Assembly: GCF_003334305.1 (NCBI RefSeq)
Contig: NZ_QOWS01000019.1
Source of the DNA: Escherichia coli
GTDB taxonomy: Bacteria; Pseudomonadota; Gammaproteobacteria; Enterobacterales; Enterobacteriaceae
Length of the DNA stretch: 64,000 nt
Direction: 5' to 3' (one strand)
Shown: piece by piece, positions 27,001 through 30,000 of the stretch
How positions within the stretch are numbered: position 1 is the first letter of the stretch
Layout of the letters: each line of letters starts with the position of its first letter
Made by a program: the position numbers

Positions 27001-30000
27001 GGGGATGGTGGTACTGGAAATAAAGCCTTTTTCCTTGTCATCCAGAGGCGTGTCACTGACCGCCTTGTTCTGAATGCTGGCCAGAAGTTTAGTAATCTGA
27101 GACTTCAGTGCATTATCCCGGCTGATGGTCACCGGTGTGTCTGCCACCACTTTCAGGCATTTATCAGAATCGTTGCAGTGATAAATTTTTGCTGTGCCGC
27201 CTTCCATCATGGCCCGGATAATTGAGCGGTCAGTGGTTCTGGCTGACAAGGGTGTGATTTCGCCGTTAGGACCAAACACCAGTGAGCCGGTCAGCGTCAT
27301 CACAAACTCTTTCAGCTCTTTGTTGCCGTCAAACATTCTGTTTTTGGAAAGCGCATTCCACATGATGTTGATGTTTTTGGTCACCCGCTCCTTATCCTTG
27401 TCGCTGGCTTTATCCCTGACACTGTCAGATTTCCCGCCAACGGTACATCCCTGCCGGGAAGCCGCCCAGTCAGCAAAAATATTGCTCTCACCGGCAATGT
27501 CCTGACAGACTTTCTGCTGGGACACCTGCGTCCGGGGGAAGAGCCCGCCGATAATCCCCTGTGCCGCCTGGCAGGAACTGAGGTTCATACTGTTAATGTC
27601 GCTTGCCATTTTCTGCAGGAAGTCTTTTGCGGTTTTGATTTCCGGCACCGTTGTCTGCAGGGCAAGGTCAAAAAAGTAACCGGCAGCATTGCTCATAATC
27701 TGCTTAACAAAACGCTGCAGCTGCTCGCCATTAATAAAACTGAACGAGCCGAGATAGGCGTCGATGCCGCCACATCCGGCATTGATATCCGGCAGCGTCA
27801 TGGAAATCAGCTGAACATTTTTGACCTGAGTACGGGCATACAGGGAGCCACCGTAAGCATAACCGGCGGCCTGCCCCTGCCAGACGCCCGGCTGTGTGGT
27901 ATTGGAGGCGAAGCCCAGCTTGTTAAAGAACTGATTCATGTCGCTGTTCACATCCGCTGACGCTGCGGGTGTGACCGTCAGTAAAGCAGCACAAAGAACC
28001 AGAAGAGGTTTAATGCGTGGCATCATTCTTGCCCTCCCTTAATGTGTTCTCCCGGCGCATACGACATTTCAGCAGGAATATCCCCATATTTCCGTCCAGT
28101 CCTGCGGCTGTAATATATTTCAGACACCGAAATCCATCCCACAATTGCCACCACAAAAAACACAACAGAAACAGAAAAGGTAAGGCACAGCGAAACGACA
28201 ATTTCTACAGGGCTGGCGGGATAAAAAAGCCCCTGATGGATAAAGGGGATATTCAGGCTGACGATTATTCCCGTCGCGATGCCGGATATTCCGGCAATGA
28301 GTAACACCACCTGCTTATTTCGCACCTTTTTTCCCTCCGTACATCTGCAGAACGGTATCCATCCGCGCCATAAAACCGGCAGCATCCGTTGCCCCCTGTA
28401 AAAGCGGTAATGCCTCAAGCGTGTTGACGTTGACCAGGAAGGTGGTCGGTGTGGCCACCGGGATATTCGGGAAGAAGGTCTGCATCACGTCCGGTGGCAC
28501 CGGCAATGCCTCCGGAAAGGCGGTATCCCCCTGACCATCCAGGGTGTAGGGAAAAACGGAAAAGCCGTACTGCTGTGCCAGCTGTTTCAGTACCGGGTCA
28601 AACTGGTGACAGTAAGGGCAATGCCCCTGCATAAACAGCACCACCTTCCAGTCGGCCAGGTTAACCTGCCTGCCGTTGCTGAGGCGGAACCAGCGGGGGG
28701 CTGGCTTTTCTGTCCTGGCTGACGTGCCTGCTGCCGGTTGTGCAGGCTGCGCGGCCATGCCCTGCGGATTCCAGAGTCGTTCAATTTCATCCCGGGTGGA
28801 GGCCTGCACGGCAGCGGCTGCCAGCAACAGGGTGAACAACAGTGATTTAATGAGAGACATGTCTGCCCTCCTGCTGCCCTTCCATCATGGCCTGTTGCCT
28901 GGCTTCCAGTGCCTCACGCTCTTCCCGGCTGACACGGGCAATCCATGCATCCAGCACCTGGTATGCGCCGAACAGCACAAGGATGGCCGCAATCAACTCC
29001 GCCAGAAAAAAAGCCATCCAGGGTTTGCTGTAAACAAGACGGGCGACGATATGAAACCAGACACCCAGGGAAAATACCCACATTCCCGTAATATCAAGCC
29101 GGGGTAAAGAGAATCTGCGTTTACTTATCATGTTAAACTCCGGTTATTATTTACATGAGAGTATTTATGTCTGTAATATTCGCGTTTGTGTGATATTAAT
29201 CAGATCAACCTCATTATTTTGTATGGTTTTTATTACCGTTTTATATGACTTAGCCTGTCATAAGCCCCCTTATAAAAAACCACATCACTCCGGACCATAC
29301 TGATGACAACATAATACAGATAAATATTCTTCTGAACCCGTCGAAGCTCGTAACGTTCGGTAATGAGCAAATAACCATTGGAACAACCATTGCTGCGCCC
29401 TGATTCATAATTGCACCACACAGAAACCAGAGACTGGCAGTCAGTACATATAAACACGCGATATTAATAACAAGGAAAACCAGTGAGCTCAGGAGAAACA
29501 TTTTCCTGTCATTACGCTCAGAAAAGAAATAACCGGCAATAATGACAAATATTAACAGAACAACACCTGTAAACATTTTCAAACAATCTTCACTCATAAA
29601 TCAAATCCGCGATTAAAAATTGGGTTTAAAATCTTCAGAAACGTTCAGGAATTGTTTTGCCAGGTAGTCCTGCGAAATAAAACCGTATGATAACGGGCGA
29701 ACACTGCCCTGTTTCGGGTCAACCAGCATCATGGCCGGGAAATATTTCACGCCGAGGCGCTGCGCCTGCCCCTGGTCAGTCCTGGAATCCGGCAACAGCG
29801 GATTAATCACGCCATCCACGGAAACGGGAATAACACTCAGACCATAGGTATCCCTGAAGCCATTAATGACCTGCGCCAGCTGCCCGTCGATGGGGTCCTG
29901 CCCCCGGTAAAAGAACATGATGCCGTAGTGTTCAGCCAGTTTCGCAATGGCCTGTCGCTGCTGCACCTGGTCTGCCGCCAGCTGGTTCCGGACCGTGCCG

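Follow-up and report, generated by a model that had tools for sequence, protein, structure and literature searches.

Gene organization between trbB and traH

The window analysed here, i.e. the whole stretch of 64,000 nucleotides from Escherichia coli contig NZ_QOWS01000019.1, contains a run of F-type tra genes encoded on the minus strand. This run includes traQ (28847–29131), trbB (28315–28860), which encodes a 181-amino-acid F-type pilus assembly thiol-disulfide isomerase and is annotated as trbB in pCS0010A, traH (26650–28026, 458 amino acids, ATG at 28026–28024) and traG (23831–26653), with trbA, traF and trbE located upstream of traQ and trbB. The trbB stop is separated from the traH start by 288 bp (28027–28314), in agreement with the roughly 290 bp given by an earlier, sequence-only reading of this DNA. 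The sole sizeable ORF with the tra orientation in this gap spans positions 28023–28418 and would encode 131 amino acids if read mechanically from a TTG. Read from the ATG at 28385, it is a 363-bp ORF (28023–28385, minus strand) encoding 120 amino acids, named trbJ by PGAP and referred to below as the trbJ'-'trbF chimera.

Region 27800–28900 of the window matches pCS0010A (NC_018954) at 100% identity; this IncFIB/IncFIC plasmid of 146.8 kb comes from a chicken isolate of Salmonella Kentucky. Region 20000–44000 matches a set of poultry plasmids from Salmonella and E. coli at approximately 100%. The window plasmid is of the ColV-type IncFIB/FIC. The PGAP annotation of pCS0010A places trbJ (363 bp, ATG at window position 28385) between trbB and traH and lists no trbF. 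As the sequence-only reading had stated, F possesses two small genes at this place: in F (NC_002483, coordinates of L004), trbJ (2848–3189) and trbF (3176–3556) occupy a 637-bp interval between trbB (2373–2918) and traH (3556–4929). F and the window share gene order and orientation, the GGGAGGG ribosome-binding site of traH and the ATGATG start region, but F has 346 bp more and two separate genes, whose products are 113 and 126 amino acids long.

From its ATG at 28385, the small ORF shares its first 71 nt (28315–28385) with the 3' end of trbB, in another frame. The sequence-only reading had reported a single frame of about 120 amino acids overlapping trbB by about 70 nt; both sizes are right, but the overlap is no peculiarity of the window, since the PGAP trbJ of F, which starts at the same ATG, shares 71 nt with trbB as well. 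The ATG is preceded by AGGGGG. A second potential start, read from the sequence, is a GTG (28323–28325, minus strand) that would yield a protein of 100 amino acids and reduce the trbB overlap to 11 nt; a Shine-Dalgarno-like GGAGGG motif (28333–28338, minus strand) is found 7 nt upstream of it. By arithmetic from the 113-amino-acid PGAP product, F TrbJ would be 93 amino acids long from this GTG. In a Shigella flexneri plasmid, PGAP starts trbJ at the GTG (L009 471–785; trbB end at 481), and the upstream ATG and the open frame are also present there. The 60-nt extension between both starts has few variable sites among seven sequences, with synonymous and non-synonymous changes mixed in both the trbB and the extension frames, a pattern that favours neither start. 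ATG 28385 and GTG 28325 are both plausible starts, between which PGAP is inconsistent, and the overlap of about 70 nt is an annotation choice, common to F.

Structure of the fusion and its junction

The sequence-only reading had left open whether the short interval resulted from a deletion or was normal for F, and had proposed an alignment with the F transfer region. Aligned with F and with pRHB11-C16_2, which has both genes, the window shows one clean 346-bp gap with near-identical flanks; the arrangement differs from that of F and is that of a deletion. The junction lies between positions 28095 and 28096, where the segment L004:3138–3483 of F is absent. Upstream of it, the trbJ-derived part (28096–28385, minus strand; ORF nt 1–290) encodes residues 1–96 and ends with two of the three bases of the Gly97 codon. 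When aligned from the left, it has 9 mismatches with F trbJ in its first 283 nt, and the last 7 nt ahead of the junction are more variable in every plasmid compared. Downstream, the trbF-derived part (28023–28095, minus strand) corresponds to the last 73 nt of trbF, agrees with F trbF at 70 of these 73 positions, and encodes RKYGDIPAEMSYAPGEHIKGGQE followed by the TGA stop, in the trbF frame.

Counted from the ATG, the break falls after the second base of the Gly97 codon (GG/A), beyond which the ORF follows the frame of trbF. At the protein level, residues 1–97 align with TrbJ and residues 98–120 with the C-terminus of TrbF, the tail being RKYGDIPAEMSYAPGEHIKGGQE in the window ORF and RKYRDIPAEMSYAPGEHIKGGQE in F. 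The missing 346 bp comprise the 3' end of trbJ (16 codons and the stop) together with codons 1–102 and two bases of codon 103 of trbF. The single reading frame noticed earlier is real, but instead of trbJ alone it represents an in-frame trbJ'-'trbF chimera, with the last 23 codons of trbF retained.

No microhomology was found at the junction, as the two breakpoints in F share no bases. A deletion between the two copies of the 10-nt direct repeat CGGAAATATC, one in F trbJ and one in F trbF, was considered and rejected: the trbJ copy is found 16 nt downstream of the junction, and the two copies are in different reading frames, so that a repeat-mediated deletion would not yield this ORF. Unequal crossing-over between paralogous trbJ and trbF was also rejected, since the BLASTP match between F TrbJ and F TrbF (E = 0.01) is out of register and leaves their paralogy unsupported.

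One deletion event would be enough to explain these data. In the scenario that we propose, a single 346-bp deletion without microhomology would have fused trbJ to the terminal 73 nt of trbF, and the join would by chance have restored the trbF frame, resulting in one ORF of 120 codons (100 from the GTG). The predicted product would retain the full two-helix membrane hairpin of TrbJ, with the 23-residue tail of TrbF replacing the 16 residues of TrbJ's own end. We thus propose, with a probability of roughly 0.88, that the interval is a derived deletion allele of the F-type trbB-trbJ-trbF-traH arrangement, which arose by one 346-bp deletion of single origin and in which the accessory gene trbF has been lost.

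Predicted protein product

The chimera matches the NCBIfam TrbJ equivalog model NF010265 (PRK13711) with a score of 234.3 bits (cutoff 164, E = 1.9e-70), its residues 1–114 aligning to positions 1–114 of the 115 of the model; F TrbJ scores 242.3 bits. Such a score shows that the small ORF is no chance frame. Its position is also that of trbJ, directly downstream of trbB and overlapping the trbB 3' end within an F-type tra operon. A hydropathy profile with a 19-residue window predicts two hydrophobic segments of membrane-spanning length (residues ~24–49 and ~57–93), as in F TrbJ, which is consistent with the small membrane protein that the sequence-only reading had proposed. The native C-terminus of TrbJ (LNESSEISEGTYNERK in F) is absent from the window ORF and RKYGDIPAEMSYAPGEHIKGGQE stands in its place.

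Little of TrbF is retained. The window ORF has no match to the TrbF model NF010306 (PRK13743, cutoff 144 bits) at E <= 0.01, a model against which F TrbF scores 195.5 bits. Both membrane segments of F TrbF (residues ~29–55 and ~73–96) fall within the missing 346 bp, and its last 23 residues alone are kept. The function of TrbF has most likely been lost with these two helices. In both TrbJ and TrbF, basic residues are found ahead of the first helix and past the second, which by the positive-inside rule would suggest an N-in/C-in hairpin for both proteins; if so, the fusion trades one cytoplasmic tail for another. From its sequence, we read the ORF as a putative TrbJ-like protein with a foreign tail, trbF itself being lost.

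A Pfam-A scan of the 120-amino-acid ORF gave no match with E <= 0.001. The P-type TrbJ of IncP and Ti plasmids, which is VirB5-like, is a protein of roughly 250 amino acids. Identity of the window ORF with P-type TrbJ was rejected on the basis of the Pfam-A result and because its sole NCBIfam match is an F-specific model that bears the "P-type" wording. As a separate observation, "P-type conjugative transfer protein TrbJ" is the PGAP/NCBIfam name given to F-type TrbJ in thousands of records. This looks like a labelling error, since the F-type protein of 113–120 amino acids has no Pfam hit and a size unrelated to that of the IncP/Ti TrbJ.

The start of traH and the fate of the fused frame

The presumed ribosome-binding site of traH, read from the sequence as AAGGGAGGG (28032–28040, minus strand), lies within the kept tail of trbF, five nucleotides upstream of the traH ATG (28026–28024). 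It is largely conserved in seven aligned plasmids, with an invariant GGGAGGG core and the variant CAGGGAGGG in p4_1_1. The TGA stop of the chimera (28025–28023) overlaps the traH ATG as ATGA. No frame but that of trbF terminates at this overlap: the second frame meets a stop 43 nt before the traH ATG, and the third continues until 16 nt beyond the ATG start. Because the join is in frame, the native coupling of translation to traH is maintained; being a one-in-three outcome, such a join requires no selection to be invoked. Both the ribosome-binding site and the ATGA overlap are retained in the kept tail, so the deletion should not affect translation of traH, an essential gene.

The same numbers bear on another explanation, namely that the chimera is a functionless remnant whose frame is open by chance or for ribosome read-through to the traH start. 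We regard this as possible, albeit rather unlikely. A one-in-three event that needs no selection would be compatible with it, and so would the apparent dispensability of both genes in relatives. The Salmonella virulence plasmids of the pSLT-type (e.g. NC_016858) also have a shortened trbB-traH interval in their F-like tra operon; unlike in the window, trbB there overlaps traH directly and neither trbJ nor trbF is present, which indicates that the small genes between trbB and traH are accessory. In the Klebsiella plasmid p234-NDM-5 (NZ_CP131917, L010), a G run within trbJ has lost 1 bp, which shifts the frame, and no trbJ is listed; this frameshift is another sign that trbJ is dispensable. Against a remnant, however, stand the TrbJ part of the chimera, intact and scoring well over the NCBIfam cutoff, and the alleles of the window and of pEC_B24, which differ by 5 nt and both keep an open frame of 120 codons.

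The opposite possibility is a working two-in-one protein, in which the conserved cytoplasmic tail of TrbF (DIPAE..YAPGE.IKGG) would be what TrbF function depends on and, placed on the TrbJ hairpin of equivalent topology, would keep both activities. If true, it would explain the spread of the in-frame allele to about 20% of the trbJ-bearing F-like plasmids. We consider it improbable.

Related plasmids and divergence of trbF

Among named plasmids, pEC_B24 (NC_014382) carries the same 363-bp ORF adjoining traH with the same junction, 5 of its 363 nt differing from the window. More generally, pEC_B24, pCS0010A, pCVM29188_146 and p30177-1, which are IncF plasmids of the ColBM/ColV-type, share the architecture of the window, with a 363-bp "trbJ" and without artA. 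pEC_B24 has been described as missing trbF and artA and as transferring easily (PMC2887853). The same plasmid was also reported without traA and other genes (PMC2887853), so that its transfer may have been assisted and provides weak evidence of self-transfer. Better evidence than that from pEC_B24 comes from pCVM29188_146, for which both Salmonella and E. coli transconjugants were recovered (PMC3008734). The few SNPs listed between pCVM29188_146 and pCS0010A lie outside the trbB-traH interval (PMC3008734), and from this SNP table we infer that pCVM29188_146 is identical to the window in this interval.

The trbJ and trbF sequences on both sides of the junction are conserved among F-like plasmids: the 5' part of trbJ has at least 95% identity in 3,443 of 3,802 records, and the tail of trbF is also conserved. 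The segment corresponding to L004:3138–3483 has 80–90% identity with F in 776 and 60–80% in 191 of 1,696 matched records. TrbF occurs as strongly diverged allelic classes, with conserved DNA on either side.

As no part of the interval has diverged more than the 346-bp segment, this pattern could suggest a mobile cassette, and the polarity of the event could then be reversed: the single-gene form would be ancestral, and F would have gained the 3' end of trbJ and most of trbF by a 346-bp insertion. This is very improbable. Such an insertion would have to supply at once a new C-terminus for TrbJ and a two-helix N-terminus for TrbF, the latter in frame with an existing tail. Moreover, trbF-bearing forms outnumber the fusion, and a TrbF-like protein is encoded at the same position in distant plasmids of the Klebsiella IncFII(K)-type (e.g. 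NZ_CP084778), which have no trbJ. In these plasmids, one small gene between trbB and traH encodes a two-helix membrane protein (140 amino acids in one such plasmid) that is TrbF-like (BLASTP 32% identity over 60 amino acids, E = 3e-8) and native, with no fusion. Its presence indicates that full-length TrbF is older than both the fusion and the F/R100 clade. The deletion of trbF sequence from an F-type ancestor therefore remains our preferred reading, and the trbB-traH interval is variable in general, the small genes in it being accessory.

Distribution of the fusion

To count carriers, the junction was used as a 40-mer probe with 20 nt per side, for which megablast can seed across the join only. 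This probe matched 779 PLSDB plasmids (673 from Escherichia, 81 from Salmonella and the remainder from others), of which 773 are typed as conjugative by MOB-suite prediction, and 683 of 5,426 complete E. coli genomes. With the trbJ 5' region present in about 3,800 PLSDB plasmids, the fusion is found in roughly one in five, a share that is a lower bound because of the exact-word requirement. An error of assembly or sequencing as the source of the short interval, for which we found no point in favour, is refuted by the recovery of the junction in these independent plasmid records and complete genomes from many laboratories and platforms.

A match to the window 40-mer at 99% or more was obtained for only 30 of the 779 records. 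Most carriers are one base off, the tail of the window having Gly101 (RKYG) where the others, like pEC_B24 and F, have Arg; the gene architecture itself does not differ. The shared junction suggests that the allele probably arose once. It has become widespread, chiefly among E. coli and Salmonella IncF plasmids of the ColV/ColBM-type, and its carriers still conjugate. The compression of the trbB-traH interval is thus a real, ordinary and widespread lineage variant, in which the loss of trbF had already been catalogued for pEC_B24; we found no paper naming the ORF explicitly as a trbJ-trbF chimera. A bioRxiv paper rich in mentions of "trbF" proved to concern the IncP trbF and is unrelated.

This distribution means that F-like virulence and resistance plasmids of a large and successful lineage can dispense with trbF, and that "trbJ" in such records is a trbJ'-'trbF chimera, a point useful for annotation and for typing by presence or absence of tra genes. 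As a natural deletion, the allele only adds to the evidence for TrbJ and TrbF as accessory proteins; it opens no new biological question and its interest is one of annotation.

Other variation near the locus

The window also lacks artA. Within window positions 29131–29250, a junction at approximately 29204/29205 marks the absence of about 278 bp of F (L004 ~1751–2028, between trbA and traQ), and the corresponding segment of F has the 6-bp sequence TGATTA at both ends. A 40-mer spanning the artA-less junction is found in 1,422 PLSDB plasmids including R100 (NC_002134), so that this is the common R100-type arrangement. A link between the deletions of trbF and artA was considered and rejected: the artA-less junction is far more widespread than that of the fusion, which indicates that the two deletions were separate events.

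Two small differences separate the window from the near-identical p30177-1. At approximately 20441, in the 3' region of traD, the window has five copies (45 bp) fewer of the 9-bp repeat GCGGCTGTT, which on the coding strand corresponds to the Gln/Pro-rich repeat of the C-terminal region of TraD, and a second difference is located near 37401. Finally, the traF ORF (29613–30386) encodes 257 amino acids when read mechanically from an upstream ATG, versus 247 amino acids (744 bp) as annotated by PGAP in identical plasmids, a discrepancy that is a matter of start-codon choice only.
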